From assembly GCF_011045215.1 (NCBI RefSeq), contig NZ_CP049201.1: a stretch of DNA of 64,000 nucleotides; one strand, 5' to 3'. Source of the stretch: Escherichia coli (GTDB lineage: Bacteria; Pseudomonadota; Gammaproteobacteria; Enterobacterales; Enterobacteriaceae). A program made the translations under genes and the position numbers. Shown here piece after piece: positions 25,381 through 50,780 of the stretch. Below the pieces are notes generated by a model. That model had not been told where the DNA came from, searched no databases, and saw only the letters and a program-made list of their open reading frames with translations. Position 1 is the stretch's first letter; each line of letters starts with the position of its first letter.

Positions 25381-26583
25381 ATGGCAGTATTGACGGATAC
25401 GAAAGCAAGACATATCAAACCTGATGACAAACCATTGCCCCATGGGGGAATTACCGGACTGACCCTTCATCCTTCTTCAGTAAAGGGGCGGGGGAAATGG
25501 GTTTTTCGTTATGTAAGTCCGGTGACACAAAAAAGACGTAATGCTGGATTGGGAACTTACCCAGAGGTCAGTATTGCTGAAGCTGCACGTACTGCCCGGA
25601 TAATGCGAGAGCAACTTGCTGCAGGTGATGATCCTCTGGAGATTAAAAAGGCTGAATCTGAGAAAGTCGTTATCCCAACATTTGCCGATGCAGCCAGGCG
25701 TGTACATGCAGAACTGTCTCCTGGATGGGAAAATCCAAAGCATGTAAGGCAGTGGTTATCGACGCTTGAGAATTACGCGTTTCCTCAACTGGGAGCAAAA
25801 ACGCTGGATTCGATTACGGCTGCGGACGTGGCAGAAACATTGCGTCCAGTCTGGTTAACCTTGTCAGAAACGGCAAGCCGGGTTAAACAGCGCATTCATG
25901 TTGTTATGCAGTGGGGATGGGCGCACGGTTTTTGTGTGGCAAATCCTGTTGATGTGGTTGACCATTTGCTTCCTCAGCAGACAAGAGGACGTGATGAACA
26001 CCAACCCGCAATGCCCTGGAGGCAGTTACCGCTTTTTGTGGCGACCAGTGTGTATAGTGATGAACCTTATAATGTTACCCGCGCACTGTTATTAATGGTG
26101 ATACTTACAGCAACTCGCTCGGGCGAAGCCAGGGGAATGCGCTGGGCTGAAATTGATTTTCATAAGCGGGTATGGACTATACCTGCAGAAAGAATGAAAG
26201 CTAGGCTACAGCATCGTGTTCCTTTATCCCGGCAGGCTATTTACATTCTGGAAAATATACGTGGCCTGCATGATGAACTGGTGTTCCCTTCACCCAGAAA
26301 GCAGCAGATCCTTTCCGATATGGTGTTGACAAGTTTTCTGCGTAAAAAGAAAGCCGTCAGTGACATTCCGGGGCGAGTTGCCACGGCACATGGTTTTCGC
26401 TCAACATTCAGGGACTGGTGTAGTGAACAGGGGTATTCGCGGGATCTGGCGGAAAGGGCGCTCGCTCATACGCTGAAAAATAAGGTTGAGGCGGCATATC
26501 ATCGCACTGATCTACTGGAGCAGCGTGTACCGATGATGCAGGCATGGGCGGATTATGTGATGTCTCAAATTGTGAATAAATAA
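25381..26583 (+). CDS. Tyrosine recombinase, P4-type integrase family
   Basis: 400-aa ORF; N-terminal arm-binding-like region and C-terminal catalytic region (AHGFRSTFRDW...LAH...Y); adjacent to att repeat. Confidence 0.85.
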   Translation: MAVLTDTKARHIKPDDKPLPHGGITGLTLHPSSVKGRGKWVFRYVSPVTQKRRNAGLGTYPEVSIAEAARTARIMREQLAAGDDPLEIKKAESEKVVIPTFADAARRVHAELSPGWENPKHVRQWLSTLENYAFPQLGAKTLDSITAADVAETLRPVWLTLSETASRVKQRIHVVMQWGWAHGFCVANPVDVVDHLLPQQTRGRDEHQPAMPWRQLPLFVATSVYSDEPYNVTRALLLMVILTATRSGEARGMRWAEIDFHKRVWTIPAERMKARLQHRVPLSRQAIYILENIRGLHDELVFPSPRKQQILSDMVLTSFLRKKKAVSDIPGRVATAHGFRSTFRDWCSEQGYSRDLAERALAHTLKNKVEAAYHRTDLLEQRVPMMQAWADYVMSQIVNK

Positions 26584-26770: not shown

Positions 26771-28588
26771 TCACTCCTGCTGAGACTGAATTATTCCTAG
26801 TGCGTCATAAATCAGTCTTCTGCGTAGTTTATTGTTTTTATCTGCACCATATAACATAAATATATTTTCAACTTTTTCTTCAGGTGTTCTGAGATAATGG
26901 ATAAGAAAGGTTATCATTCCAACACAATGGAATAAAGTGAATCCATCAAACAGGCTTATCAGGTTTCCTTTTTTTTCCCGTGTTGTAAGTATTTTTTCGC
27001 GGGTAAGAATATTTGCTAGTTCATGGGGGGTTGATATATTTCTGCTGTCTATAATGTTATTTATTTTACCAAGGGCTATATCAACTTCCTGTAATAGGTT
27101 ATTTATCATAGCTGAGTGAATGTTATTGGTTTCATGTTCCTGACAGTTTATGAACTTATAAATCATTGAGTTATACAGAAATATTACTCTTCCTAATAAA
27201 TATGTGTTTGTGTCATTTTGAAGACAGGACTCTGGGTATTCGTGATCCAGTGAAATAAGGTTAATGGACTCGCCCTGATAAGTCATAAAATAATTGATGT
27301 CATTTAATAATGCTCGGATATTTACATGATTTTTACTGAATTTTATTTTAAATGCTATCTTTAGTATAGCAAACGCGGCAATGATAAATCCAAAAGGTAA
27401 TTTCTCATAGTTCAGTTTATTGATGGTGCGATGAACACTTTCAGTCTTTCCTGAAGTAAGTTGTATCAAACAGTTAACAAATTCTGTATAGCCATTTAAG
27501 ACATAATGGCATGAAGAATCTTTTAAAGTGTTTTCTATGTTTTGTAATGTGACGCCGTTGTTCAATGTATAAATGTAACCGCCAAAGACAATGTTTTCAA
27601 TCTCAACGACACAATTTATTGTTTTTTGTTCAGGATAAAGATAAATATCAGAAATACTATAGTCTCGTATTGCGTCAATGGCCTCCCACGATAATGCACT
27701 GTCAATTTTCAGTGTATAAAATGGTGAGTTCTCATTAGGAAAGTAATATATGTGTTTGTTCAGTATATTCATTACATCTATTGGGTTGGTTAAATATAAT
27801 AACTGGCATTCATATTCTGAAACTTCTCTTTCGCTTATCAGCATTTTATATAAAGTTGCCAGGGCGCTTGTTAATGAAGTTCGTCTTTCGAAAGCCAGTA
27901 ATATGGTGAGATAATAACATGCAACTTGAATTTTATCTAAGTCAGAAATTATTTTTTCCTTGTCTTCATTACTTAAATAAAGCAGATGTTTACAGGTTTC
28001 TTTGCATGTGTTGATAGTTGCGGTAAGTTTTGTTTTTCCTGGTGTACTGTTTTTGCGAATATTACGAATGAATTCATATACGCCATCAAAGATATCTTTG
28101 AAATGCGCATTCGCTGGTGTGTATCCGGATAAACATAACTTAATGTAATTTCGCAGATATGTCCTTGCAGCATGATATATATCATCCTCATTATCCGGTA
28201 TCTGAGTGAGAAAAGAATGAATATGATAGTAAAATGCCATCTCATTATCCGGGCGATATGTGTTCCTGATGTCGAGTGCGAGAATCATTGGTACAATGTC
28301 ATTAAAATATTTTTGTTTTATTATTTGATGTGTTTTGTCTGTAAAAACAGAATAGTGCATTAGCTTAACATAGAGATCTTCATATCTCCTAAATATAACT
28401 TTTCGTTGTTCTGTACTCAATACTTGTTCTTTATCAATAATGTTTATTAATTCATCAAACATGTCGCCCAGTGAATGTTGATGTGAGGAAAAATTTTTAA
28501 TATTTCGGATGTCACGGGTATTCTGGTTTTTAGCCAGAACACCAAAACATGAAAAGACATCATACATTATAGTGATAAAATTATACAT
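26771..28588 (-). CDS. Hypothetical 605-aa protein, AT-rich, no recognised domain
   Basis: Long uninterrupted ORF with strongly AT-biased codons; no P-loop or nuclease motif recognised by eye. Confidence 0.55.
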   Translation of the reverse strand: MYNFITIMYDVFSCFGVLAKNQNTRDIRNIKNFSSHQHSLGDMFDELINIIDKEQVLSTEQRKVIFRRYEDLYVKLMHYSVFTDKTHQIIKQKYFNDIVPMILALDIRNTYRPDNEMAFYYHIHSFLTQIPDNEDDIYHAARTYLRNYIKLCLSGYTPANAHFKDIFDGVYEFIRNIRKNSTPGKTKLTATINTCKETCKHLLYLSNEDKEKIISDLDKIQVACYYLTILLAFERRTSLTSALATLYKMLISEREVSEYECQLLYLTNPIDVMNILNKHIYYFPNENSPFYTLKIDSALSWEAIDAIRDYSISDIYLYPEQKTINCVVEIENIVFGGYIYTLNNGVTLQNIENTLKDSSCHYVLNGYTEFVNCLIQLTSGKTESVHRTINKLNYEKLPFGFIIAAFAILKIAFKIKFSKNHVNIRALLNDINYFMTYQGESINLISLDHEYPESCLQNDTNTYLLGRVIFLYNSMIYKFINCQEHETNNIHSAMINNLLQEVDIALGKINNIIDSRNISTPHELANILTREKILTTREKKGNLISLFDGFTLFHCVGMITFLIHYLRTPEEKVENIFMLYGADKNNKLRRRLIYDALGIIQSQQE

Positions 28589-28755
28589 AACATTCTCCTT
28601 TTATTGCACTATATAAAATTTTAACATTATATCATTTTGCTTTTCTGTTAACTGGTTTTCATTTTTGAATCAATATTTTCTGAACAGGGTAATAGTACAC
28701 GTATTAACAGATTATGTCAGAAGGCCCCGGTGATGCCTTCTGACGATAGATTAAT

Positions 28756-29477
28756 GTGATATTCTATTGGTATCTGGAGACCATATGGCAACAGTTACAG
28801 TACATTCTCCCCGCTGTAATTCCTATAAAGTGTACCATTATGATCACAGCACCTCAGATCATGAGCGTTTCCAGTGCTAATCCTGCAAATGTGTGTATTT
28901 CAACTGAATTACATCTACGAAACCCGAAAACCAGGCATCAAAGAGCAAATTGTTGAAATGGTTCATAACGGAGTCGGGTTCGCGATAGCTCCAGAACGCT
29001 GAAGGTGGATATCAACACCGTCATTCTCACTTTATAAAACGCTCACCACGCAAAGTAACCACATCTCCAGACGTCAGTGCCGATGTGGCGCTTATCTGCG
29101 AACTTGATGAACAATGGAGTTTTGTCGAAAACAAAGCTCGTCAGCAGTGGCACTGGTATGCGTATAACACCAAATCTGGAGGTGTGCTGGCTTACACTTT
29201 TGGTCCTCGCACTGATGAAACATGTCGTGAGTTGCCGGAACTCCTGAAGCCATTCTCCACAGGCATGATAACCAGAGACAACCGGAGCAGTTATACCAGA
29301 GAAATGCCACAGGATAAGCATCTTGTCGGCAAGATATTTACCCGGCGCATTGAGCGCAACAATCTGACACTTCGTACTCACATCAAACGACCAGCCCGGA
29401 AAACGATTTGCTTTTCACGCTCCCTGGAAATTCACGAAAAGCCATTGGTTCATTTATCGAAAACACTGTACTACTGA
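28756..29477 (+). pseudogene. Degenerate IS1-family element remnant (InsA/InsB-like, frameshifted)
   Basis: 29085-29477 translation ALICELDEQW...YTFGPRT...QRIERNNLTLRTH matches the InsB pattern; InsA-like pieces upstream broken by stops. Confidence 0.6.
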
Positions 29478-29700
29478 CTGGAGTCATTACCAGGGCCTCT
29501 TTTGCTGTTTTTTTACCAATGAATGATAATGAGAATCGACAGTGATAAGGAGAAAGTAAAATAACAATAATGCTGTTGTTTTCTATCGTATTGATTTTTA
29601 ATTATTTATTGTCTTTTTGCTCAGCCCATTTTTTTACGCAGACAAATTTACCCGGGGAATACAAACTGTAACGACAGTTCACCACACTATGGGGGATAAA

Positions 29701-29997
29701 ATGCCAGATCAATCCGGATACTGCTGGACTCCTTCACGCATCTTACGGATGCCTGAACTGAGCCAATTGTTAGGTATATCTCGTTCGACAATTTACGAAA
29801 AAATGAATCCGTTATCGAAATACTACGATGCAACCTTCCCCAGGCCGGTACGTCTTGGTAGTGGTTCTGTGGGCTGGCGTTCATCAGCTATTGACGAATG
29901 GCTTACTTTACATACTGTACCTGCCAGATCAGCAGTCAAAGGTGTTAATGACGAAGTGCGACATACGCTTTCTTCAGATATGACCATGAGCAGATAA
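29701..29997 (+). CDS. AlpA-family transcriptional regulator / excisionase-like
   Basis: HTH segment LSQLLGISRSTIYEKM...FPRPVRLGSGSVGWRSSAIDEWL; SD-like ggggga before ATG at 29701. Confidence 0.65.
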   Translation: MPDQSGYCWTPSRILRMPELSQLLGISRSTIYEKMNPLSKYYDATFPRPVRLGSGSVGWRSSAIDEWLTLHTVPARSAVKGVNDEVRHTLSSDMTMSR

Positions 29998-30170
29998 GTT
30001 TTTGTCATCACGTGATCACCTCAGGAGGAAAAAGAAGCATAAGAACAATTTAGCCAGAAGTTTAATTGATAAACAGAATTTCCAGCATTCATTGTTGAAA
30101 GAGCAGCTATTGTCGCTATTGTAGCGGTAATTGCTGCTATAACCGAAACGTATTACGAAAAAGGAAGCAT

Positions 30171-30421
30171 TTATGTCTTACATCAAACCGGATATGCCGT
30201 ATTCAGTATATACGTGACCATCAATGATAGGGAAGGCAATAATTAAAGCTCAATACAATAAACAAGTACCTCTGACTCTGGTTGCAATGTCAGTATTAAC
30301 AGCGATGTCAATTGCCTGTCAGAATCAGGTTGACGTATGCAGCCCCGGAAATTTACGTGGGGCCGTTAATATTTACACTATGGTTCTGGAGAAAGGGAAA
30401 AGACCGGGGGAAAGGTATTAG
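30171..30421 (+). pseudogene. Truncated, frameshifted duplicate of the N-terminus of the downstream DUF3987-like gene
   Basis: 30224-30421 translation ...VAMSVLTAMSIACQNQVDVCSPGNL parallels VATSALTAISIACQNQIDVCRPGNL of the 30640 gene; upstream leader also duplicated. Confidence 0.45.
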
Positions 30422-30639
30422 TGAAATAATTTCTGGAGGTATTAAGAATGAGAAATATGAATGATATTTCGTGGTAAATAATACAGTCTGCACTGAATTA
30501 ACCTTATCGGTTTATTAAACATCAGATCTACAAATGCTCAGTATTTCTCAGAGCATCAGGTCTGAATAGCAGCTATTTTCGCTATTGTAGCGGGAGTTGC
30601 TGCTATTTTACTAACCCATTAATGAAAAGAGAGGCTTTT

Positions 30640-32073
30640 ATGTGCTTACTTGCACCAGAAAATCCTTATCCGATATATGCACTACCACCGCTGGTGAGAA
30701 ATGCAATAATTGAAACTCAAAAAAATACACAGGCACCTTTGGCTATGGTGGCAACATCCGCATTAACAGCGATCTCAATTGCCTGTCAGAATCAGATTGA
30801 CGTGTGCAGACCTGGAAATTTACATGGGCCTGTTAATCTTTACTCTCTGATTCTGGCTGATTCCGGTGAAAGGAAAACGACCGTGGATAAAGTGTTTATG
30901 AAAGCATTTTATCTCAGGGATGAAGCCCTGGCGGAAGAATACGCGAAACTGGTTGAGAATTACAGTACAGAAAAGGAAATATGGGAGCAAAAACAAAAAG
31001 CGCTGGAATCAAAATTTCATAAAGAGATTCGTGCCGGTAAAGATTACAAGGCAACAGAATCAGAGCTTGAAACGCATCTGAATAAATCTCCTGTTCCGCC
31101 GCAGATACGTCGAACAATTTTTAATGAGACAACGATAGAGGGAATGTTAAAATATTACTCTGATAGCAATCGCTCTTTTGCTCTTGTATCCAGTGAAGGG
31201 GGGGTAATTTTTGACAGCCGGGCCATGAGTAAACTGGGAATTATTAACACTTTGTGGGATGGAGGTTCTCTTTTCATCGACAGGAAATCATCTCCCGGAA
31301 TTAATTTGAAGGAGCCAAGACTGACGATATCGGTGATGATTCAGCCTGATGTTTACCACAAAGGTTTTTGTACGCGAAAAAAAGAACTTGTGAAAACGTC
31401 AGGACATCATGCAAGGTTTTTGATGTGTCAACCAACATCAACGCAGGGGACAAGGATAATAACCGGAGATAATTATTCATCACAGTATCAGGATTTGTTT
31501 GAAGAGAGGATCAATGAGCTTATTGATGAAAGTCTGGCGATGAGTGGTGAACGACGTTGCCTTCACTTTTCTCCTCAGGCTGCCAGAATCTGGACGGATT
31601 ATTACAATGATGTGGAATCGAAGCTGGGGGGATTGGGGCCTTTAAGACATTGCCGGGAATATGCTGCTAAAAATGCAGAGTATATGGCAAGACTGGCAGG
31701 ACTTATTTACCATTCGAGCGGTGAAGAGGGGGAGATTTCCCCTTACACTGCAGAAATGGCGAGAGAATTAGCAATATGGTACGGTAATGAGTATGTGCGG
31801 TTGTCTAATCCGTTAACTTTTGACAACTCCGCCCTGACCGTACCTGTGCGACTCATTCCAGAGGAGCTTGAACTTTTCAACTGGATAAAAAGCTATTGCA
31901 TTGAGAAGGGGATCCTCTGTATGAAAAAAAATGACATTTTACAGCGTGGCCCGAACCGTTTCCGGAAAAAGGATAAAATCAACTGGTTACTGGATTTACT
32001 GTATGAACAAAACAGAGTTGTACCGGTTATTGAGGGAAAAACGTTGTGTGTCGCACCTAACTTTGACCTCTGA
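30640..32073 (+). CDS. DUF3987-like (YfjI-like) island protein
   Basis: About 478-aa ORF; assignment from recalled similarity to prophage YfjI-type proteins; SD agagagg before ATG at 30640. Confidence 0.5.
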   Translation: MCLLAPENPYPIYALPPLVRNAIIETQKNTQAPLAMVATSALTAISIACQNQIDVCRPGNLHGPVNLYSLILADSGERKTTVDKVFMKAFYLRDEALAEEYAKLVENYSTEKEIWEQKQKALESKFHKEIRAGKDYKATESELETHLNKSPVPPQIRRTIFNETTIEGMLKYYSDSNRSFALVSSEGGVIFDSRAMSKLGIINTLWDGGSLFIDRKSSPGINLKEPRLTISVMIQPDVYHKGFCTRKKELVKTSGHHARFLMCQPTSTQGTRIITGDNYSSQYQDLFEERINELIDESLAMSGERRCLHFSPQAARIWTDYYNDVESKLGGLGPLRHCREYAAKNAEYMARLAGLIYHSSGEEGEISPYTAEMARELAIWYGNEYVRLSNPLTFDNSALTVPVRLIPEELELFNWIKSYCIEKGILCMKKNDILQRGPNRFRKKDKINWLLDLLYEQNRVVPVIEGKTLCVAPNFDL

Positions 32074-32334
32074 ACGACTTAATCGTTGAGTACATATAGT
32101 CTCCTCTGCTACTTGCGGAGGAGACTAATGTCTTTACCATGTCAGCGTTGTATTAGAAAACTCTGGTACAGGTCAGTCAGTAAATATAACTGGTGTAACC
32201 ACTATTTACTATTGGATAGAGTGTTGCTCAGGATATTGTCGGCTTTAGTCTGAGGTGAGGTGGGGCCTTCATTGTTTTCGTGTTCAATAAATAATTTAGG
32301 TTAATTAGTATTATTAGTGGGAGTTATGTGATCT

Positions 32335-32702
32335 GTTATGTTGTCTCTTTTATCGTAATGTCACTCCTCTCTATGCTAAGTATTCTGTATGTGTGTAATA
32401 CATATATCTCCATACACTACGCAGTGAAGCATATGGGGGGAAGCTGTATGGTGAATTATGTGGTGTAATGTTGGGAACATAAATCTGTTATGTTATGTTG
32501 TCTTGTACGCACTTAACACTGGTTACGTACCGGAACACTATTAGAGTATGTTATGGCTCCGTTACAGTTTATAAGCATAGGTAAATATAATATTTTCTGT
32601 ATGAAATAATCTTCTTATTGTGAGGTTAAATATCTGTAGGCTCTCTCTGCAGAGTCTCTGTTTTTACTTAATGGTACGGCAATATTAATAGCGATGTTGT
32701 CT
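32335..32702. repeat. Iteron-like short direct repeats in AT-rich non-coding region
   Basis: GTTATGTTGTCT at 32335-32346 and 32504-32515, related ATGTTGTCT at 32694-32702, within a 0.9-kb gene-free AT-rich stretch upstream of a Rep-like gene. Confidence 0.4.
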
Positions 32703-33011
32703 GTGGCTACCCGGTACTGACTTTTGTGAAGATCAGATTATATCCTGTAAGTAATTGAATGGTGCTTTCTTAAACTCAATTATATGAGGTGTGTTTTTTA
32801 TTGTAATTCGTTCTGGTCCTCAGTTTAAGAAAGTCTTACTGTATTCTGAATCATTACCCTATTACTGTAATGAGGTAATACGAAACAGTTTTATCAGGTT
32901 GTCTGTGCTGCTGGTTACCTCTTTTATTAATGCCGCGGTACGGCGTTTCTGTACTCTCAGTATTTATGTAATTCCACTTTCCTGTCAGTTTTATAAAGTA
33001 AGGACTATAAA

Positions 33012-33575
33012 ATGTATAATGCCAATCCCAATTACGAAATGAATTTCGCGATTCTGAAAGATGTGAATGAACACATGGAAGGTCTGTTTCAACGTTTTTC
33101 TAAACTGTTACCTTTCAGAATTGATTTTGCTTACAGGAAAGACACGCCCAGTTTTGGTCTTTCCTGTAAGCACAGTATGTGTATGGAAATGTACCGCTTA
33201 CTTAGCGAAACCCAGACGATGTTGGCGGGATATTACTGGGTAATGGAATATACACCAGACAAAGGGCTTCATATTCATTTTATCGGCTATCTGGATGGAC
33301 AACGTCACAAGAACTCTTATCAGATATCCAGGCAACTGGGAGATATCTGGAGGCGGATCACGGAAGGGGAGGGTTATTTTCACCTGTGCCGGGCTAAAGA
33401 TAAATACCCGGTGCGTATCGATCATGTAATTCACTATAGTGATAAATCTGCGGTAGACGACTTACGTTACGCCCTTAGCTATCTGGCGAAACAGGATCAG
33501 AAAGAACACGGTATTATTCTGGGGCGTAGCAGGCTTCCCGAAAAAAGTAACCGCGGCCGACCACGACATAACTGA
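33012..33575 (+). CDS. HUH-motif Rep-like protein (YagK/YfjJ, inovirus Gp2-like family), paralog A
   Basis: 187-aa ORF with His-hydrophobic-His motif (GLHIHFIGY) and downstream Tyr-containing region. Confidence 0.55.
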   Translation: MYNANPNYEMNFAILKDVNEHMEGLFQRFSKLLPFRIDFAYRKDTPSFGLSCKHSMCMEMYRLLSETQTMLAGYYWVMEYTPDKGLHIHFIGYLDGQRHKNSYQISRQLGDIWRRITEGEGYFHLCRAKDKYPVRIDHVIHYSDKSAVDDLRYALSYLAKQDQKEHGIILGRSRLPEKSNRGRPRHN

Positions 33576-33669
33576 ATTATGGGGGCTTATGTCCGAACTA
33601 TCGTAAGTTATCGCGTGGATTTGCCTTCACACGAATTTCAGTCGTGGTGCCGCCGGGAGACAGGTACAA

Positions 33670-34033
33670 GTGATAACGCATATGGTTTATAAATCTGACA
33701 GCGATGAACTAGCAGTACTGCGGGCAGAAAATACCCGGCTGGTCTCATTACTTGAAGCTCATGGGATTGAATGGCGACGTAAACCGCAGAGCCCTGTGCA
33801 GTGCGTTTTCGTATTATCCACGGATGAGAAAGTTGCGTTATTTTGTCGACTGTTTCGCGGGCGTGATGATGTATGGGCCCTTCGATGGGAAAGCAAAACC
33901 AGCGGAAAGGGTATTCGTCTACCTGGCTAACGAATGGCTGTTGGGAATATGCAGTAAGCCCTGGATAAAATGTGGGGACTGCGCTCACCGTCAGTTGATC
34001 CCTGTATCTGATCTCATCATCTACCAGAGGTAG
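33670..34033 (+). pseudogene. 5' remnant of a larger gene (coiled-coil plus Cys-rich segment), frameshifted
   Basis: 33670-33930 encodes ...ALFCRLFRGRDDVWALRWESKTSGKG; an overlapping frame continues ...ANEWLLGICSKPWIKCGDCAHRQLIP before a stop; no downstream body. Confidence 0.3.
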
Positions 34034-34147
34034 TGTACAATATGCCGATATCGAACTGATACTTAATTAAAATATCTAGAGTGTGATATATCTCTGAGAA
34101 CTATCAATACGAATATTAAAAATACTTCCAGAATAACAGCAATACGG

Positions 34148-34651
34148 GTGGATCTCCATTACCCTCCTGTGATTGACAACGGGGATACCATTACCTGTTT
34201 TCCTAACCTGACCCCCGGAGAAATATCTCGTTTCCGTAACTCGCTGAATGCGAAAATTAATGCAGATCAACACCGTAAAAAACAACAAGGCAAACGCACC
34301 TACGCAACGTCGGTTTGTATTATCTGGGCGAAAGAATATACGCAGTCCTTTAAATGTCATTATCACGTCTGCCTGTTGTTTAACAAAGACGCCTATTACC
34401 ACCTGGGAGACTATGAGCGCTCTGACACCCTGAGAGGGTTAATTACCGGAGCCTGGTACAGTGCCTTAGGGTTGGAACTGGAAGATCACCAGGGATTAGT
34501 TCATTTCCCTACTAATGGGCGTTACATCCTGGATATTAACGATCCTGATTTCCCTGAGCAGTACCAGCGCTTATTGGTACGTCTGGATTATTTGACGAAG
34601 CTCGACACTAAAGCATCAGGCCAGCGTAACTTTGGCTACAGCGGTTTTTGA
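34148..34651 (+). CDS. HUH-motif Rep-like protein, paralog B (start uncertain, GTG at 34148)
   Basis: His-hydrophobic-His motif CHYHVCLLF aligning with paralog A; upstream in-frame sequence still resembles the A N-terminus, so the gene may be 5'-truncated. Confidence 0.5.
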   Translation: MDLHYPPVIDNGDTITCFPNLTPGEISRFRNSLNAKINADQHRKKQQGKRTYATSVCIIWAKEYTQSFKCHYHVCLLFNKDAYYHLGDYERSDTLRGLITGAWYSALGLELEDHQGLVHFPTNGRYILDINDPDFPEQYQRLLVRLDYLTKLDTKASGQRNFGYSGF

Positions 34652-34941
34652 CCTATTGTAACTATAAGGTGATTTATTATGTATATAGAATCTTACCAGA
34701 AAAAATACTTTTCCTTGTGATTTGGTACTGAGTTAACATTTAGTACAGTATTAGGGCCTTCATTGTCAGGCCCTGCTTTGCAATTTTTCAAAGCTCCAGG
34801 TAAGCTTTTTTCCGATAAACATGCTGATATCAAACACCGCTTCTTTACCAGCACTATCAAAAATAATTCTGATATTTGGTTTTTATCTCCTTGTCTATAG
34901 ATTCGTCACCAATACTGTAGCTTGTATCATTACTTCCTCAA

Positions 34942-35715
34942 TTAAGTGGTTAAAGCTCTAATGCTAAAAGAATGCAATATTGGTAGAGAGTTTTTTGAGC
35001 ACCATGACAGATTTTCTTTACTCAGTATTTCATCAATAACAGACTTAGCAAATGGAATGGTGAGCAAGAATGAAGCTTTTTTATCTTTATTTGGAACTAT
35101 GCGGTTACCACCATTTACCCAATGTGCTTCAAGTCTGACATTTAGATCTTGCCATTTTACACCTTTTCGAACACGTTCTTTTTTTAATGAATAGAAAAAA
35201 GTTGATTTACCATTTGGTGTCGGGTGGTTATCCATTAACATTAGCATAAGAGGGATTCCCCAGTCAGGCATATAGCTATAATGCCAGATCCCAAAACTAT
35301 CCGCGATCCTGACCATCCGAATGAATGATTTTTGATCAAGCTTCCCTTCACCTCCCCTTAATGCTCTACAAACAACCCAGGCCCGATAGAGGTTATCAAA
35401 TTGCATGAATTGATTTCGGCGAGATACTGCAATTTCTGCTGAAGCAGAGCGTTCATTACCTGAAAAACCAGAAAAACGTTGAGATCTTGCGCTTAGGGGA
35501 CAGAACTCTTTATTTTCTGGTGAAGCGGAATGAGAGAATCTGGGGCTATAATCAGGATTGGGAGTGACTAATCCGCTATCATGGACAGGTTTCTCGCATG
35601 AGATACAACGTAATGGTGGGTAGTCATCTCGTGATATACCCTTAACTTTTTGTGCATATGCATCAATACTGATTTCAATCCAATAACCTTTTTCCAGAAC
35701 TTCAGCTTTATTCAT
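34942..35715 (-). CDS. Hypothetical 257-aa protein
   Basis: Uninterrupted ORF with AT-rich upstream region; no recognised domain. Confidence 0.45.
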   Translation of the reverse strand: MNKAEVLEKGYWIEISIDAYAQKVKGISRDDYPPLRCISCEKPVHDSGLVTPNPDYSPRFSHSASPENKEFCPLSARSQRFSGFSGNERSASAEIAVSRRNQFMQFDNLYRAWVVCRALRGGEGKLDQKSFIRMVRIADSFGIWHYSYMPDWGIPLMLMLMDNHPTPNGKSTFFYSLKKERVRKGVKWQDLNVRLEAHWVNGGNRIVPNKDKKASFLLTIPFAKSVIDEILSKENLSWCSKNSLPILHSFSIRALTT

Positions 35716-36022
35716 AATGTGTTGCCTCTGATATTGTTCATGTGATTATTGATAATAATAGATTACAGATAAAAAAGAAGAAATATGTATTTAAATCTTG
35801 TATTACAATGTATATATACAATTCAATCAAAAATTAGTGTTTTTAATCTCATGGCATAATCAGAAAACAGCAGAACGGGGTATTTGTTTTAATGGCGCCT
35901 CGATAAAAATTGAGATAACAGTTGCAGTTTAAAACACCTCTATTTCGTGGTTCTGAATATAGAGGCTTTACGATTTATTAAAATATTACTAAAATATGTT
36001 CATATTCCGATGCACAGACCTT

Positions 36023-38456: not shown

Positions 38457-40196
38457 TTGACTGGAAAATTATGTTGCAGGAACGAGAGGGCTGAGGAACA
38501 AAGCGTATTCCGGCGCTGTCCGTCCTTGCTGTCACTGACACTGATGTCTGTTTTATTATCGCCTTTATCTCTTCAGGCCGCGGATGTCCGGCGTAGCGGA
38601 GATAATGCATTTATCATTCAGCAGCAGCGTCAGGAAGCCCTTGAGCAACAACTGACGCCTTCAGCCCCTGATGTTCGCCTTTCTGCACCTGGCTCTTTTG
38701 CCCGTAAGATTAATTTTCCTGTTGAAACGCCCTGTTTTCAGATTAAACAGACGGAACTGGAGGGGGCTGATGCGTTACCACACTGGCTGCCTTTACAAAA
38801 AATCGCCAACGGGGCGGTCGGGCATTGCCTGGGGGCGAAAGGAATTAATCTGCTGATGAGTACATTGCAGAACCGTCTGGTCGATCATGGTTATGTCACC
38901 ACCCGTGTTCTGGCACCTTCGCAGGATTTAAAAAGCGGTATCCTCCGGCTGGTTGTTATTCCCGGTGTTGTGCGACATGTGCGTCTGACACCGGACAGTG
39001 ATGACTATATTCAGTTGTATTCCTCATTCCCGGCACACGAAGGTTCTCTGCTGGATTTACGGGACATTGAGCAGGGGCTGGAGAATATGCAACGACTGCC
39101 GGGTGTGCAGGCTGATATGGAAATTGTACCCGGTGAGCAGCCAGGGGAAAGTGACATTCTTATTACCCGCAAACAGGACAAATACTGGCGACTGGGGTTT
39201 TCGCTTGATGATTCAGGTACCCGCAGCACAGGGCGTTATCTCGGTGGTATAACATTTTCTCTGGATAATCCTTTTTCCCTGAGTGACCTGCTGTATGTTT
39301 CTGCCACCCGTAATTTTCCACATTACGGGGGTAAGGGCAGTAAAAACTACACGGCCCATTACTCTGTGCCTTTCGGCTACTGGCAGTTTTCCGTCACCGC
39401 CAGTGATTACGATTACCATCAGACGGTAGCTGGTGCGGTTGAGGATTACCAGTACAGTGGCGAGAGTCAGAATCTGGGTATGCAGCTGAGCCGGGTACTG
39501 CACCGTAACGGGACGCAGAAAACGGTGCTGACCTACGATGTTCAGGCCCGCAGGTCGCGTAACTACATTAATGATACGGAAATCCAGGTGCAGCGCCGGC
39601 AGACAGCGGCCTGGCGACTTGGGCTGCAGCACCGTCATTATATTTCTCAGGCCACACTGGATGCTGGTGTCAGCTGGCAACGGGGAACCCGCTGGTTTGG
39701 TGCACAGCCGGCGCCGGAAGAAACGTTCGGTGAGGCAACGGCGCTCAGTAAGATCCTGCAGTTGAATGCATCCTTTAATCTGCCCTTTACCCTTGCAGGG
39801 CAGCCCTTCAGTTATTCCTTCCGGTATCAGCGCCAGCTGAGCAATACCCCGCTGACCCCACAGGAACAGTTTGCCATCGGTAACCGCTGGACGGTTCGTG
39901 GTTTTGACGGGGAGCGAACGCTGAATGCCAGTAACGGCTGGTATATCCGCAACGACCTGGCCTGGCGTACGCCACTGCCGGAGCAGGAGTTATATCTGGG
40001 AATGGATTACGGCGAGGTGGGGGGAGCCGGCAGTGAATACCTGGTGGGACGTCATCTGGCTGGTGGTGTTGTGGGGCTGAGGGGGCAACTGTTCAGTACG
40101 GATTATGACGTTTTCATCGGTCGTCCGTTTTCAAAGCCGGCGGGTTTTATGACGAGTGATGTGACAGCCGGTTTTAATCTGTTCCGGGATTTCTGA
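38457..40196 (+). CDS. cdiB: Two-partner secretion outer-membrane transporter CdiB (TpsB family); start uncertain (TTG at 38457)
   Basis: Signal peptide ending [13 protein letters not shown]-like N-region, C-terminal beta-barrel ending in aromatic residue; directly upstream of cdiC-cdiA. Confidence 0.85.
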
Positions 40197-40205
40197 GAAA
40201 GTTTC

Positions 40206-40733
40206 ATGCGTAACGGGAAATATGACGTTCTGAGTCCCCTGTATTCCGGTGAGCCGGTCAATGAGGCGGAAGTCCTGGGGGCGGCCGTCTGGTTGTGGAT
40301 GCACTCCCCCCTGCATCGTGATGCGCCACTGCATACCCTGCCGGACCTGCTGCTGCCGGTGATTAAGCACCGACAGTATGTGGTGGCAACAGAGCAGGGG
40401 CGACCGGTTTTCTTCATGAGCCAGGCCTGGCTCAGCCCGGAGGCAGAGGCGCGTTATCTTACGCAGCCGGCAATTCTCATGCCTCAGTCGGACTGGAACA
40501 GCGGCGACCGGATGTGGGTCTGTGACTGGATTGCCCCTTTTGGACATACCCCGGATATGAGTCGTCTTGTCCGGCAGGATATTTTTCCCCGTCTGTGCTG
40601 GCGTTCGCTGTACCACCGTGGGCAGCAGACCGGGTTGCGGGTGATGAATTTCCGGGGTGCACAGGTCAGTCGTGAAGAGGCGCGCCAGTGGCGTGTGCAG
40701 CACCCGCTTGCTGTGGATGTGCCGGAGAGATAA
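40206..40733 (+). CDS. cdiC: HlyC/RTX-family toxin-activating lysine acyltransferase (CdiC-like)
   Basis: Motifs WLWMHSPLHRD and GDRMWVCDWIAPFG closely parallel HlyC (WLWASSPLHRN, GDRKWFIDWIAPFG); 175 aa. Confidence 0.8.
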   Translation: MRNGKYDVLSPLYSGEPVNEAEVLGAAVWLWMHSPLHRDAPLHTLPDLLLPVIKHRQYVVATEQGRPVFFMSQAWLSPEAEARYLTQPAILMPQSDWNSGDRMWVCDWIAPFGHTPDMSRLVRQDIFPRLCWRSLYHRGQQTGLRVMNFRGAQVSREEARQWRVQHPLAVDVPER

Positions 40734-40748
40734 GTCAGGTTTATCAGA

Positions 40749-43700
40749 ATGAACAAAAATTGTTACCGCATTATTTTTAACAAAGCCCGGGGAATGCTGA
40801 TGGTGGTGGCAGATATTGCCCGTTCCGGTCGCGCCGGTGCATCACCCTCCTCCCGTACAGGATATCCACGCAGGCAACGTATCTGCCGTGTCACATCGCT
40901 TGCATTCTCCCTGTGGCTGGCCTCGGGGATGGTGCATTCTGTCAGTGCTGCAGGCATTGTCGCAGACCATGGCGCACCGGGGCATCAGCAGCCCACGATT
41001 ACGCAGACAGCCAGCGGCATTCCTCAGGTCAATATCCAGACACCTTCTGCAGGTGGGGTATCGCACAATACTTACAGTCAGTTTGATGTCAGTCATCAGG
41101 GTGTCATTCTGAATAACTCGCATAAAAATGTGCAGACCCAACTGGGCGGCATGGTTGCCGGTAACCCGTGGCTGGCGAAGGGAGAGGCCCGAATCATTCT
41201 TAATGAAGTGAACAGTCGCAATCCCAGCCAGTTGAACGGTTTTGTTGAGGTTGCCGGGAAAAAGGCGCAGGTGGTGATTGCGAACCCGGCCGGCATCAGT
41301 TGCGACGGGTGCGGTTTTATTAATGCGAACCGGGCCACGCTGACCACGGGGCAGCCTCAGATGAAAAACGGCAGTCTGACCGGATTCAGTGTTGAACGTG
41401 GTGAGATTCAGATTACGGGCAAAGGGATGGATGCCTCGCGCACGGATTATACCGATATCATTGCCCGGTCTGTGAAGATTAATGCGGGTATCTGGGCGCA
41501 GGACCTGAAAGTGACCACCGGACGTAACAATGTGGATATTGCACACGGGCAGACTGAGAAAAAAGCCGCTGATGCCTCTTCGCAGCCACAGGTGGCGCTG
41601 GATGTGTCCAGCCTTGGTGGAATGTATGCCGGAAAAATTCGCCTTGTCGGTACGGAAACGGGGGTGGGTGTTCGTAACGCCGGTCATATTGGTGCGCAGG
41701 CAGGGGCGGTTACCCTGACGGCTGACGGACGAATTGAAAACAGTGGCAGTATCAGTGCGAAAACGGATGTGCATCTGGTGACAACCCGGGAGCTGCATAA
41801 CAGTGGTTCTGTTTATGCGGGGCAGGATACGCAGATACAGAGTGATGGTGTATTCACCCATACAGGCTCTGTGGCATCACGTCGCAACACCCGGATTCAG
41901 ACAGCGCGTCTGACCGGCGGTGAGCGGAGTCTGCTGGCCGCCGGGGTGAAAGATGACGGACGTCTGGCGGCAGCGGGCAACCTGACTGTCAGTACCACCG
42001 GCGAACTGGCGGCACACGGACAGGTTCTGTCCGGTGGGGACATGCAACTGAAGGGGCAGGGGCTGGATTTAAGCAACAGCCGGATACAGGGACAACATAC
42101 TGAGCTGGATGCAGGCAGCGGAAATCTGTTCACGCAAAATGCGCAACTGAGTGCCGGTACGCTTTCCGCCCGGACTGCCGGGCAGTTCAGCAATAATGAC
42201 GGCACGATAAATGCCGACACACTGCAGATATCAGCACAGAGCCTGTCAAACCACAGGGGTAAACTGATTCAGACGGGAACAGGGGATTTTTCACTGAACC
42301 TGCCGGGAGGTGTGGATAACCGGGAAGGGCTGCTTGCGGCAAATGGCGCGGTGCGCCTGGATGCACTGAGCCTTGATAATCGCAGGGGGAAAGTGCAGGC
42401 GGCGCAGTCAGGTAGTCTGCAGGTGAGGACAACCGGCGCCGTGGATAACCAGCAGGGAAGTCTGATTGCCAGCCGTGACATCCTGATTAATACACAGGCA
42501 CTGAATAACGACAACGGACTGATTTCAGCTGCTGCCGGAACGGGCAGGATAAAAACACAGCAGGCTGTCAGCAATACTGAGGGACGAATGGAGTCCGCCG
42601 GCAGGCTGGATATTTCGGCAGGGAGTCTGAATAACCACCAGGGTACGGTGGTGTCTGACGGGCTGTCCGTGACGCTGGATGGTGCGCTGGATAATACGTC
42701 CGGCAGACTGCTTTCACAGAAAACGCTGTCTGTGTCAGGCAGCGAACTGGTCTCTGATGATGGTCTGATTCAGTCCGGCAGTGACATGACGCTGGATGTA
42801 CAGGACGGGGTTCTCAGTAACCGGAACACGAAAACACGGGGTGGTATCAGCAGCGCCGGTACCCTGACAGTACGGGCCGGTATGCTGAATAACCAGCAGG
42901 GATTTATGGCGGGTCAGAAGGATATGACCCTGAACGCCGGAACGCTCGATAACCGTCAGGGCGTGCTGGGGAGTCAGGCGTCATTACAGATATCGTCAGG
43001 TACGCTGATGAACCAGAAAGGCGCACTGAAGGCCGGGACGGATATGTTGCTGAGTGGTGGCGATGTCAGTAATCAGGAAGGGACGCTTGCCGCCGGCGGG
43101 GACCTGAATGCGCACCTGAATGTGCTGGAAAATCAGCAGGGGACGGTGGTCAGCAACGGTAACAGCAGGCTGGATGTCACCCGCTCTGATAATCAGGGCG
43201 GCAGACTGGTGGCACAGCAGTCACTGACCCTTTCCTCGACGGATATCAGCAATGATGCAGGTGGTCTGATACAGAGCGGTGCCACACTGAATCTCCGTGC
43301 TGACACACTGAGCAACCGTAACAGTGGTGACCGGGGCGGGGTTATCAGTCAGGGCCCGATGACGCTGAATGCCGGCACACTGGACAGCACTGCCGGTGTG
43401 CTTTTGTCGGGAGATGCGCTGTCCCTGACTGCAGGCGTGGTTAACAATACATCCGGTCAGGTGGTGGCGAATGGTCAGATTGTGGCGACCGGTCTGCCCG
43501 GCCGGAACAGTCTGGCGCTGAACAATCAGTCCGGTCTTATTCAGGGGAAAGGCATCAGCATTAATAGCGCAGGCCGGACGCTGGATAACAGAGGGGGTAC
43601 GCTGAACAGCCTGCAGGAACTGACTGTCAGTACCGGAGCAATGGATAACCGGGGCGGGACCGTGGGGGCGAAAACGACAGCTGACCTGAGCACCACCTCG

Positions 43701-46700
43701 CTGGATAACCGTGAGGGTGGCCGGCTGGTCAGTGAAGGTGAACTCCGTCTGCATACGGGAGGCCTGCAGAACAGCCACGGACAGATACAGTCTGTGGGCG
43801 ACATTCTGTTCGACAGTGTACGGGGCGTTGTGGACAACGTCTCTGGTCTGATTCGCAGTGGTTCTGCCATTACGCTGAACGCCCTGCAGTTTATCAATCG
43901 CCACACGCAGAATACCGGCCAGGGGCTGGAAGCGCAGACAATACACATCACGACGCAGGACCTTGATAACCAGGAGGGCAGTATTCTGGCAGACAGGGCG
44001 CTTACGGTTATGGCAGACAGGACGCTCAGTAATAATGATGGCGTGCTCTCTTCCGGCGCGACATTGTCTGTCAGTGGCCGTCAGCTGGCGTTTTCGAACC
44101 GTGACGGCGTGGTTAAGGCCGGGCAGTCAGTCTCTGTGGATGTCGGTCAGCTTGGTGGTGACGGGAAACTGCTTTCGCCGGGCGATATAACGCTGAAAAG
44201 TAACACAGCGTTCAGTAACAGTGGTCAGACCATTGCAAACGGAAACCTTACGCTTTCCGTTAATGGCGATGTCTCTAATACCGGCAGCCTGCTGGCAGGC
44301 AGCCGGCTTGACCTGAACAGCATCCGCCTTGAAAACACAGAGAAAGGTGAAATCAGTGCCGGGCAGACCTGGCTTAACGTGACGGACACACTGCTGAACC
44401 GTGGGCTGATTGACGGGAAATATACGCATCTTCAGGCGAACACCCTGACGAATTCCGGTACCGGGCGAATCTACGGCGATGCTGTTGGTGTCAGCGCTGC
44501 CACATTTAATAATCTGGATGAAAATGGCGTGGCGGCGACGCTGGCCGGACGTGAGCGTGTGGACCTGGGGGTACAGACCCTGAATAACCGGACGCACAGC
44601 CTGATTTACAGTGCAGGTGATATGCATATCGGTGGCATGCTGGATGCGAATGGCGCCGCCACGGGGAAAGCCGGTGTACTGAATAATCACAGTGCCACGA
44701 TTGAAGCCGCCGGTTCCCTGACACTGAGTGCCGGGCAAATCAATAACGTCAATGACCATTTCACCACGGAGCGCGTGGTGGTCTCCACGGAAAAGGTGAC
44801 TGAGTATCAGCATCGCGGGTCAGATGTCCGCTGGAATGCAAAAGATGAGGGGGTGTTCATTGATAACAACTCCTCTGATGGACTGCTGAACCTGAACACG
44901 CCGGATGATACCGGACATAACAACGACCGGTTCACAAAATATGAATACACCCGTACCGTGGAGGAAACCCGGGTAAAAGACTCCGACCCGGGGAAAATAC
45001 TGTCCGGTGCCGGCATGACGGTTGTGGCAGACAAACTGCTTAATGACAAGAGCCAGGTGGTTGCAGGTGGTCTGCTGGATATGCAGGCCGGTGATGTGGA
45101 AAACGTCAGTGTCAGCGGAGAGCGCCATGTTACTGATAAAGGGACATCCACATATTATTACCGGATAAAAAGAAAAAATAAAAATGACAGGCAGGGGGAA
45201 AGAATTTCCCCTTACGAGCCGCCCCCCGTCATTCAGACCATCACGCTGAAGCCGGGAGAGCTCACCAGCCACGGACAGGTTCAGGGCAGCCAGGTCACGC
45301 TTTCTCCCCTGAAGCCACAGGGAACGGATGTACAGACAGGACTGACCGGAAATGTGGATGCGACAGTAGCCGTTACTGACCGGATACCGCTTCGCCCGGT
45401 GGTGTCAGCCGGTGAACCGGTCATTCTGTTGCCGGGGCAGCAGTTTGAAGTCAGCGCACCTCAGGGCAGTATCCATGTTGCCGGGCCGGATACCCGTCTG
45501 CCGGACAGCAGCCTGTTTAAAACAAATCCGGCAGTGAATGTGCCATATCTGGTTGAAACGGACCCGCGTTTTACGAACCAGAAGACGTGGCTGGGCAGTG
45601 ATTACATGCAGAAGGCGTTTTCTCAGAACGGGGATAACATGCTCAAACGCCTGGGGGATGGTTTTTACGAACAGCGTCTGATTCGTGAGCAGGTTGTCGC
45701 TCTGACCGGGCAACGGTACCTGGACGGATACAGTAATGATGAAGAGCAGTTTAAGGCGTTAATGGATGCGGGTATTGCATTTGGTAAGCAATACAACCTG
45801 ACACCAGGTGTGGCGCTGACTGCTGAGCAGATGGCGTTACTGACCGGTGATATTGTCTGGCTGGTTAACACCACGGTGACACTGCCGGACGGCAGCACGC
45901 AGACGGTTCAGGTACCTCAGGTGTATGCCCGTGTAAAACCCGGTGATGTGAACAGTGCCGGTGCGCTGATTGCCGGCAGGGACATGGTGATGAAGCTGGA
46001 TGGTGACCTGTTTAACAGCGGTAAACTGGCCGGGAAGCAGGCCGTGCAGCTCAGTGCAGAAAACATTCACAACCAGGCCGGCACCATTCAGGGAGCAAAT
46101 GTCAGCCTGACGGCCCGGACGGATATTAACAGTACCGGCGGGCTGCTGCAGGCCACGGACAGCCTGCTGGCGATGGCCGGACGGGATATCAGTCTGACCA
46201 CCACCACCCGTACGGCACAGCGCGACGCCGGGCAGAACCATTTTGAACGTACCAGTATCGACAGTGTGGCCGGCGTGTATGTGCAGAACGACCAGGGAAG
46301 ACTGGTGCTGCAGGCCGGACGGGATATGAATCTGACGGCGGCAACGGTGGTGAATCAGGGTAAGGACAGCCTGACACAACTCAGTGCCGGCAGGGATATG
46401 ACGCTTTCCACGGTGACCACATCCGCGCAGGACAATATTACCTGGGATAAAAATAATCGTCTGTCGCAGGGCGTCACACAGAATACGGGCAGCACACTTG
46501 CCGGTAACGGTGATGTCACGCTGACCGCCGGACGGGATATGACGTCACAGGCGGCATCGCTGTCAGCTCAGAAAGGCCTGGCCCTGATGGCGGGTCATGA
46601 CGTGACGCTGACCGGTGCACAGAATACCCGCTCGCTGGATGAATACCATAAAGTGACCGGCAACAGCGGGATGTTATCGAAAACCACCACTACCACGCAT

Positions 46701-50069: not shown

Positions 50070-50551
50070 TAAATGTGAATAGTACCGCAAAGGATATTGA
50101 AGGTTTAGAAAGTTACCTAGCTAATGGCTATGTAGAGGCTGACTCTTTTAACGACCCAGAGGATGATGCGTTAGAGTGTCTCAGTAATTTATTAGTTAAA
50201 GATTCGAGGGGGGGGCTGTCATTTTGTAAAAAAATACTTAATTCAAATAACATTGATGGTGTTTTTATTAAAGGTTCGGCGCTGAATTTCTTATTATTGT
50301 CAGAACAGTGGTCTTACGCCTTTGAGTATTTGACAAGCAATGCGGATAATATAACTCTTGCAGAGCTTGAAAAGGCGCTTTTCTATTTTTACTGTGCAAA
50401 AAATGAGACAGATCCTTATCCTGTACCAGAGGGTTTATTCAAAAAACTGATGAAAAGATATGAAGAACTGAAAAATGACCCTGATGCAAAATTTTATCAT
50501 CTTCATGAAACGTACAATGATTTTTCAAAAGCTTATCCTCTGAATAATTAG
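50066..50551 (+). CDS. cdiI: Putative CdiI immunity protein for the main CdiA-CT
   Basis: 161-aa AT-rich ORF; start overlaps cdiA stop (ATGA at 50066-50069). Confidence 0.6.
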   Translation: MINVNSTAKDIEGLESYLANGYVEADSFNDPEDDALECLSNLLVKDSRGGLSFCKKILNSNNIDGVFIKGSALNFLLLSEQWSYAFEYLTSNADNITLAELEKALFYFYCAKNETDPYPVPEGLFKKLMKRYEELKNDPDAKFYHLHETYNDFSKAYPLNN

Positions 50552-50780
50552 AAGCTATCGCCATGGAATATTGTCTATGACTGCATGGAAGGATGATGGT
50601 CATAGTGTGTTGGGAGCTATTCTTTAACAGATTTGGGGGAAATGGTGTAACTGGCTGAAAGGGCGCGTCAGGGCAAAAAGTTGTTGCGCCGGAATTATAG
50701 CAGGACAAAGCGGTTTTAACGCGCTGAAAGCACAGGGAAAACTTGTTTTATCACAGCAACCTGCGGCGGAAAGAGTTGTT

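Follow-up and report, generated by a model that had tools for sequence, protein, structure and literature searches.

A partial duplication of the yfjI leader and 5' end in an integrase-AlpA-YfjI island of Escherichia coli, a probable recombination scar, and the palindrome it carries

We analyzed a 64,000-nucleotide stretch of an Escherichia coli chromosome (NZ_CP049201.1, hereafter the window) and, within it, a direct repeat that lies between two genes of a genomic island, an alpA-type regulator gene and yfjI, which encodes a DUF3987 replication-associated protein. With good confidence we regard this repeat as an old partial duplication in the replication and regulation module of an integrase-AlpA-YfjI island, and its upstream copy as a recombination scar. 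The gene part of this copy is very probably a dead fragment of yfjI in neutral decay without coding function. Judged from the sequence, the duplicated leader element is a conserved palindrome and not a recognizable promoter. The fragment itself matters little, being an ordinary scar and a dead piece of a gene, while the palindrome, together with an HUH-like neighbor of yfjI, gives a candidate for the site that controls an as yet unstudied replication module of the island or serves as its origin.

The direct repeat and its upstream copy

The initial annotation had described a tandem partial duplication of the leader and 5' end of the DUF3987 gene, and a direct repeat is indeed found there. Repeat finding gave two matches, 30157-30389 versus 30624-30856 (75% identity) and 30099-30172 versus 30565-30638 (74%), which a gapped local alignment unites into a single one of 30099-30432 versus 30565-30909, with 254 of 346 columns identical (73%). 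The alignment score of 154 compares with a mean of 10.9 and a maximum of 16 in 300 shuffles, and the best score among about 295 other pieces of the window used as a control was also 16. The similarity, which might have turned out to be below chance, is far above it. The offset between the copies is 466-467 bp in direct orientation, close to the approximately 450 bp first proposed. Duplication of the 5' end of the gene was seen correctly, but its extent had been put at the first 60 codons, and the homology comprises the leader and about 88 codons.

The upstream copy had also been described as broken by a stop and a frameshift, and both are present. Its frame opens with ATG at 30173, meets an in-frame TGA at 30215-30217 (codon 15) and ends at 30419-30421; compared with the gene copy it lacks 10 bp near 30388, and the frame shifts as a result. 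The fragment matches profile positions 1-42 only of the Pfam family PF13148. Seven islands belonging to three lineages were aligned to compare lesions (the window and L026; L002 and L027; L003 and L028; also L029). The TGA at codon 15 and the 10-bp deletion are shared by the window and L026. In L002 and L027 codon 15 reads CAA and the 10-bp deletion is absent, but codon 76 is TGA. Codon 15 is TAA in L003 and L028, which also carry an insertion of 1 bp and a deletion of 12 bp, and CAA in L029, which has an extra 1-bp deletion. The upstream leader has diverged by 12-21% between lineages.

Differences were also counted by codon position, for three lineages only. The values for positions 1, 2 and 3 of the fragment are 0.21, 0.19 and 0.19 between the window and L003 and 0.13, 0.13 and 0.10 between L002 and L003; the intact yfjI gives 0.059, 0.044 and 0.149, i.e. 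a third-position bias. Open reading frames (ORFs) called on the fragment vary by lineage in start, frame and length (49, 65, 75 and 87 aa), and no conserved ORF or small protein was found on it across the compared lineages. Lineage-specific lesions, even codon-position differences and the lack of a conserved ORF together suggest that the upstream copy is unconstrained.

In RefSeq the ORF at 30224-30421 is annotated as a 65-aa “DUF3987 domain-containing protein” (WP_000579535.1). Annotation of the fragment is inconsistent, since other genomes have a “hypothetical protein” or a pseudogene “missing C-terminus”, and RefSeq already marks parts of the duplicated locus as “incomplete”. Could this ORF encode a functional small protein, an N-terminal YfjI peptide with a role of its own, e.g. 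as a dominant-negative regulator? The RefSeq entry, a Pfam DUF3987 hit (E=5.8e-8) and, in some lineages, an 87-aa version that is open and follows a real-type leader (P0127) would agree with such a role, which we nevertheless consider highly improbable: start, length and frame vary between lineages with no ORF conserved, third-position bias is absent, no Shine-Dalgarno sequence precedes the ATG at 30224, and recent recombination with a real gene copy accounts for the 87-aa form of L042. The 49-87-aa “DUF3987 domain-containing proteins” that RefSeq lists at this locus are best read as pseudogene pieces.

Distribution, origin and recombination of the duplication

An assembly artefact, a possibility raised at the outset, is ruled out because the same arrangement recurs in many genomes. 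Of 5426 complete E. coli genomes, 1337 contain the junction segment of 148 nt (30415-30562), in every case with coverage of at least 80%. The yfjI clade of the window occurs in 1398 of these genomes, so that about 96% of its carriers have the duplication. The junction segment was never found outside the duplication context in the 5426 genomes, and an independent source for it was rejected on this ground. The architecture recurs at thrW in other strains, in versions with only 80-87% identity to the window. A few islands such as L004 are single-copy, the palindrome and yfjI coming immediately after alpA. A scan of genome contigs with YfjI returned just two distant loci, from Yersinia and Citrobacter, which are informative on the palindrome and not on the duplication.

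The duplicated unit would extend from the last approximately 35 nt of a class-B alpA, through the spacer with the 37-bp palindrome and the ribosome binding site, to about codon 88 of yfjI. The event would have spared alpA and the downstream yfjI, with a truncated 5' end of yfjI inserted between the two. The left edge is indicated by 30496-30567, which aligns to the alpA 3' end and spacer of L002 with a local score of 43 (shuffles: mean 23, standard deviation 3.8, maximum 36); from this, the unit that was repeated started within alpA. A consensus built from the upstream copies shares 79-82% identity with the 5' ends of yfjI in the resident clade, compared with about 62% for K-12-type genes. No full-length protein closer to the fragment translation than the resident YfjI was found among 5.8 billion proteins, the closer hits all being fragments of 52-146 aa. 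Since the fragment is closest to the resident clade and no closer full-length protein is found, in-lineage duplication appears to be the simplest account of its origin, and we infer a single duplication in place rather than a join of two related islands. The fragment could then have persisted by hitch-hiking in a successful island lineage, and the approximately 75% identity between the copies would make its loss by homologous recombination inefficient.

A one-step tandem duplication is expected to leave a single clean novel junction. What is found instead is a filler of about 75 nt (30433-30495) that aligns to nothing. It gave no significant alignment with class-A and class-B alpA 3' regions, and derivation from the GWxESEIDEW-coding part of class-A alpA was rejected, as this weak resemblance is not above shuffles. 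The filler has a strong GGAGG (30435-30439) and then a 9-codon mini-ORF, MRNMNDISW and a stop (30448-30477). Across lineages the stop of the mini-ORF is retained (TAA or TGA) with one synonymous change, but M is changed to I in L042; these numbers are too small to judge.

One alternative is a join of two related islands, in which tandem alpA-yfjI modules of different alleles, e.g. from tandem integration, suffered a deletion from about codon 88 of the first yfjI to the 3' end of the second alpA. This would accommodate the non-homologous filler at the junction and the identity of no more than 79-82% between the upstream-copy consensus and the 5' end of any resident yfjI, and module exchange among these islands is demonstrable. 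We consider it a possible but less likely course of events, because the protein search gave no closer full-length YfjI and the fragment is clearly in the same clade as the resident gene. The outcome would still be a non-functional scar, and hence a variant of the explanation that we prefer.

Some observations weigh against a single in-place duplication followed by neutral decay. About 96% of clade carriers still have the duplication after 12-21% neutral divergence, a long persistence for useless bacterial DNA that could reflect selection on the upstream palindrome, the filler or the spacing. The filler and mini-ORF show about 10% pairwise divergence versus 12-21% in the fragment, a difference that is not significant (p=0.16). 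A filler of this length is unlike the residue of a simple one-step tandem duplication. Finally, the ancestral upstream copy was already about 18-20% away from the real copy, and its source may have been a different allele.

Recombination at the duplication has continued. Between the window and L002 the fragment differs by 12% and yfjI by only 0.6-1.5%, with a change of ancestry at about the gene-proximal palindrome, and homology of the window with the L002 and L003 islands begins exactly at the upstream palindrome. L042 and L043 have a chimeric upstream copy, in which the leader and the first approximately 50 codons are real-type (37-40 of 40 identical to the real gene) and the switch to fragment-type lies inside the conserved block TCAATTGCCTGTCAGAATCAG. 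From these chimeric copies and ancestry switches it follows that the repeats act as recombination substrates. The main effect of the fragment would thus be that of a substrate and boundary at which related islands reshuffle their alleles of alpA and yfjI and their leaders, and recognizing the repeat as such a boundary aids the reading of mosaics of very common E. coli islands. The AlpA of the window is 44% identical to K-12 AlpA and 19% to class-B AlpA of L003, and a class-A-like alpA allele appears to have been swapped into the window lineage. The insertion sequence (IS1) remnant beside alpA and the differing alpA class suggest that the left part of the module has been replaced in this lineage. 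A recombination scar was one of two readings offered in the initial annotation, and it draws support from the unconstrained decay, the lineage-specific lesions, the left edge inside the alpA 3' end and the recombination seen in L042.

The palindrome between alpA and yfjI

Each copy of the repeat contains a 37-bp palindrome with 17-nt arms, AGCAGC-TATTnT-CGCTA-TTG-TAGCG-n6-GCTGCT (hp1 upstream, hp2 next to the gene). Predicted plus-strand RNA folds have energies of -19 kcal/mol (z -3.2) for hp1 and -25.1 kcal/mol (z -5.6) for hp2. The left arm of hp1 consists of two tandem 9-mers (GCTATTGTC/GCTATTGTA). In L026 (E. coli WCHEC020031, 2557-2600) the 9-mer GCTATTGTC is expanded from 2 to 4 tandem copies, which could be due to slippage or to iteron-like variation.

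Homologous palindromes lie between alpA and yfjI in the K-12 cryptic prophage CP4-57 (GCTATTTCCGCCATTAATAGCGGAATAGC), in Yersinia rohdei, in a Citrobacter and in several IMG/VR loci, and the palindrome is retained where YfjI is only 39-43% identical. Its center is 52-62 nt before the yfjI start at all loci (counted by hand). Arm symmetry is held by double changes across types, pair 4 being A-T or T-A and pair 13 C-G or T-A. In the literature searched we met no published description of this palindrome. The half-site occurs nowhere else in the window, and similar palindromes were found neither near yagK (CP4-6) nor in L031 and L032. A scan of viral contigs with the palindrome pattern was discarded, 16 of 18 matches being chance occurrences inside coding regions. 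In copies of the window's type (E-type), 92.6% of cells pair on the plus strand and 81.6% on the minus strand, and covariation is not above shuffles (154/500). Over all palindrome types the non-Watson-Crick cells comprise 18 G-U on the plus strand, 7 on the minus strand and 21 others, with wobbles on both strands; the palindrome could therefore act either as an RNA hairpin or as a DNA site.

The initial annotation had suggested that the upstream leader might be a decoy promoter. This is not borne out, as promoter-like hits are at chance level, with 6 found in the region versus 4.5 expected. The single sigma-70 hit of the upstream copy (30095-30122) is absent from the downstream copy, and its -35 box lies in the swapped alpA junction of the window lineage only. 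A conserved sigma-70 promoter, with -35 and -10 boxes at 16-18 bp spacing in both copies, is therefore not supported. An intrinsic (Rho-independent) terminator was rejected, the hairpin being without a conserved U tract: the tail TATTTTACTA follows only hp2 in the window lineage, compared with ATAACCG after hp1, ACTTTACT in L002, L003 and L004 and CATATTTGC in K-12. Scanning 27000-36000 with Rfam 15 for a known RNA family gave only a spurious miRNA model (24 bits versus a gathering threshold of 110, E=0.23). A Q-like antitermination role of AlpA at the hairpin, after the P. aeruginosa model, is no more than a tentative lead, since the paper on that model has no link to the E. coli AlpA family (PMC7969949). 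By sequence, the AlpA types matched no solved antiterminator complex, the sole hit being 8c3t, an “AlpA family phage regulatory protein”.

With no conserved intrinsic terminator and hairpin tails that differ between lineages, the duplication might insulate transcription: the RNA separating alpA from yfjI, about 465 nt and for the most part untranslated, would be a Rho loading zone that uncouples yfjI from alpA read-through and tightens its silencing. The terminator zone upstream of yfjI in K-12 CP4-57 is among the strongest Rho-dependent terminators measured (PMC9160355), and the upstream ORF of the window lineage stops early, after 14 codons. We nonetheless judge this reading quite unlikely. 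K-12 reaches Rho termination without a duplication, the upstream ORF is open for 75-87 codons in L002 and L042, and 30140-30560 has no marked C-rich, G-poor stretch, its GC skew being mostly positive and up to +0.69 at 30400-30479.

We favor a protein-binding site. The palindrome would be the only functional element of the duplicated leader, an operator and/or origin of the yfjI/gp2-like module and not a promoter. A class-B AlpA (Yersinia L006) is found beside a K-type palindrome and a class-A-like AlpA (the window) beside an E-type one. The palindrome type appears to track the YfjI clade and not the AlpA class in the few lineages compared, where linkage to yfjI confounds the comparison; this speaks against an operator for AlpA and assigns the palindrome to the yfjI side of the module. 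The AlpA operator was rejected for this lack of co-variation, with the same reservation.

The partner of yfjI in this module is a YfjJ/Gp2-like gene. In an alignment of eight members of the YagK/YfjJ “inovirus Gp2” family the H-x-H and Y-x-x-K motifs are kept, and the AlphaFold model of K-12 YfjJ has a pLDDT of 83.7. The conserved, putatively catalytic tyrosine of the Gp2-like protein corresponds to Y187 of K-12 YfjJ. These proteins are predicted to have an HUH-nuclease-like fold. HUH nucleases act at palindromic origins. Given this, and one arm made of tandem 9-mers whose number varies (2 versus 4), our preferred reading is that the palindrome may be an origin or autoregulatory operator of the module of YfjI and the HUH-like YfjJ/Gp2.

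If the palindrome is such a site, hp1 could still be bound by the putative binder of hp2, the pair at 466 bp acting by titration, looping or cooperation, or as an initiator-terminator pair if it is a rolling-circle origin. Consistent with such a second site, every lineage examined has an intact hp1, which diverges by 5-8% between pairs compared with 12-21% for the adjacent fragment, the mismatched stem pair 7 is repaired upstream in two ways (T-A in L002 and L003, A-T in L042), and the duplication is nearly fixed in the yfjI clade (about 96% of carriers). In the seven island sequences, hp2 has 2 of 37 sites variable versus 21 of 107 in the flanks (borderline, p=0.065), and the pooled sites of hp1 and hp2 are less variable than the neutral flanks as a whole (p=0.015). 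Taken alone, however, hp1 does not differ significantly in conservation from its neutral flanks (6 of 37 variable sites versus 65 of 249, p=0.23), which leaves a residual decoy role for it with a low probability. No known protein binds the palindrome, the 9-mer expansion in L026 shifts the outer arm 18 nt away, and two active rolling-circle origins in direct repeat would be expected to cause loss of the interval, which is in fact stable. A function for hp1 as a second site is in our estimate improbable; slightly less probable still is the combined claim that the palindrome is the cognate site of the module and that the second site 466 bp upstream, by titration, looping or as an initiator-terminator origin pair, kept the duplication in a quarter of E. 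coli genomes.

The island and comparison with known systems

The window belongs to the E. coli chromosome. The best-matching genomes are about 99.3% identical to it, and in these the island adjoins clpA. The gene serW is expected near clpA, beside which the integrase sits; ARAGORN found no tRNA gene in the 64-kb window (1-64000). From the integrase at 25381 the island extends to at least 51716, more than 26 kb (Table 1).

Table 1. Features of the island and of the duplicated region (window coordinates unless another locus is named)
Feature	Position	Strand	Remarks
Tyrosine integrase	25381-26583		Left end of island
605-aa gene		minus	Product unknown; between integrase and IS1 remnant in island order
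IS1 remnant	28786-29477		Transposase frameshifted; directly upstream of alpA gene
alpA-type regulator gene	29701-29997	+	98 aa; class-A-like allele; Pfam PF05930 Phage_AlpA, E=5e-19
Upstream palindrome hp1	30102-30138	+	Inverted repeat AGCAGCTATTGTCGCTA-TTG-TAGCGGTAATTGCTGCT
Upstream leader	30139-30172	+	Aligned to 30605-30639; Shine-Dalgarno-like AAGGA retained
yfjI 5' pseudogene fragment, codons 1 to ~88	30173-30432	+	Putative; from alignment and translation
Junction filler	30433-30495	+	~75 nt; origin unexplained; occurs solely together with the duplication
Class-B alpA remnant (last ~35 nt) and alpA-yfjI spacer	30496-30567	+	Left end of downstream repeat unit
Gene-proximal palindrome hp2	30568-30604	+	Inverted repeat AGCAGCTATTTTCGCTA-TTG-TAGCGGGAGTTGCTGCT
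yfjI leader	30605-30639	+	Shine-Dalgarno GAGAGG at 30629-30634
Intact yfjI	30640-32073	+	477 aa; DUF3987 replication-associated protein; PF13148, E=5.2e-84
Inovirus-Gp2/YfjJ-like gene	33012-33575	+	187 aa; putative HUH nuclease; module partner of yfjI
cdiB	38457-40196		ShlB/POTRA
cdiA	40749-50069		3106 aa; TPS, haemagglutinin repeats, PT-VENN
Small ORF	50066-50551		May encode immunity protein
Orphan toxin module	50796-51716		Endonuclease_NS_2 domain
~30-37-bp palindrome at alpA-yfjI junctions	30568-30604; 2410-2438 in L030 (K-12 NC_000913.3); 2431-2459 in L006		

The intact YfjI covers profile positions 1-363 of 364 of PF13148, a full-length match, and RefSeq starts its YfjI family protein at 30640. 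The representative of its 90%-identity cluster is 98% identical and named MULTISPECIES YfjI family protein. Fusions to Toprim or Prim-Pol domains are frequent among YfjI/DUF3987 homologues; the window YfjI has no fused primase domain. The approximately 940 bp between yfjI and the gp2-like gene (32074-33011) contain no convincing ORF; they include a few short repeats and a hairpin of 13-bp stem at 32097-32127 after the yfjI stop, and neither convincing iterons nor a clear iteron array were found in this gap.

Farther downstream, 33670-34651 includes remnants of a TOTE-system archaeo-eukaryotic primase, a gene that the matching RefSeq genome annotates as frameshifted, and a second, N-terminally truncated ORF with a YagK/YfjJ domain at 34148-34651 (PF11726, E=7.5e-50). 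These remnants appear to indicate further decay and rearrangement downstream. As cargo, the island carries a contact-dependent growth inhibition locus, cdiBAI, at 38457-51716.

The closest parallels to the fragment are partial-duplication pseudogenes in bacterial mobile elements, with which it shares a direct repeat, a truncated copy, lineage-specific stops and indels, neutral substitutions and ongoing recombination. It differs from them in being unusually old (12-21% between lineages), nearly fixed in the island clade and accompanied by an unexplained junction filler.

For the palindrome, comparison with replication origins comes to mind. Plasmid rep genes are preceded by inverted-repeat operators of iteron-like repeats, and HUH rolling-circle replicons have hairpin origins. 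In resemblance only, the window has a palindrome directly upstream of a replication gene, one arm made of tandem 9-mers in variable number, and an HUH-like-fold protein next door; this nearby putative HUH nuclease has both the HUH and the catalytic Tyr motifs expected beside an HUH rolling-circle origin. Unlike most HUH nick-site loops, the window palindrome has a long stem (17 bp) and a 3-nt loop, and the lack of such a palindrome near yagK or in L031 and L032 does not fit the resemblance. The gpII nick region of the Ff phage (M13/f1) plus-strand origin, GTTCTTTAATAGTGGACT, shares the 11-mer TTAATAGTGGA with the Yersinia (L006) palindrome, read on its minus strand; the K-12 counterpart ATTAATAGCGGA matches at 10 of 12, and the E-type palindrome of the window matches less well. 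This match is probably a coincidence, because the YfjJ/Gp2-like family has no detectable homology to M13 gpII (hhalign probability 0.3%).

The order of integrase, AlpA and YfjI in the window is that of the int-alpA-primase (DUF3987) phage satellites, such as PICMI and also P4-like elements. Replication of PICMI satellites depends on the DUF3987 gene (PMC10803314). The window island is unlike them in size, exceeding 26 kb with cdiBAI cargo where PICMI-like satellites are minimal (about six genes), in that no helper phage or packaging function was identified for it, and in a YfjI without a fused primase domain.

The most similar arrangement is found in CP4-57 of K-12 (b2624-b2626), which has the same order of integrase, alpA, palindrome, yfjI (DUF3987) and a yfjJ/Gp2-like gene. 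Its homologous palindrome, GCTATTTCCGCCATT|AATAGCGGAATAGC, also lies between alpA and yfjI, with its center about 61 nt before the start versus 54 nt in the window. In contrast to the window, K-12 has a single copy without a gene fragment, its YfjI is 41% identical, and its palindrome is of another sequence type, without the TTG loop and with a 1-nt bulge. If the reading of the palindrome as a site of the YfjI and YfjJ/Gp2 module is true, this module would be common to CP4-57-like islands, including that of E. coli K-12.

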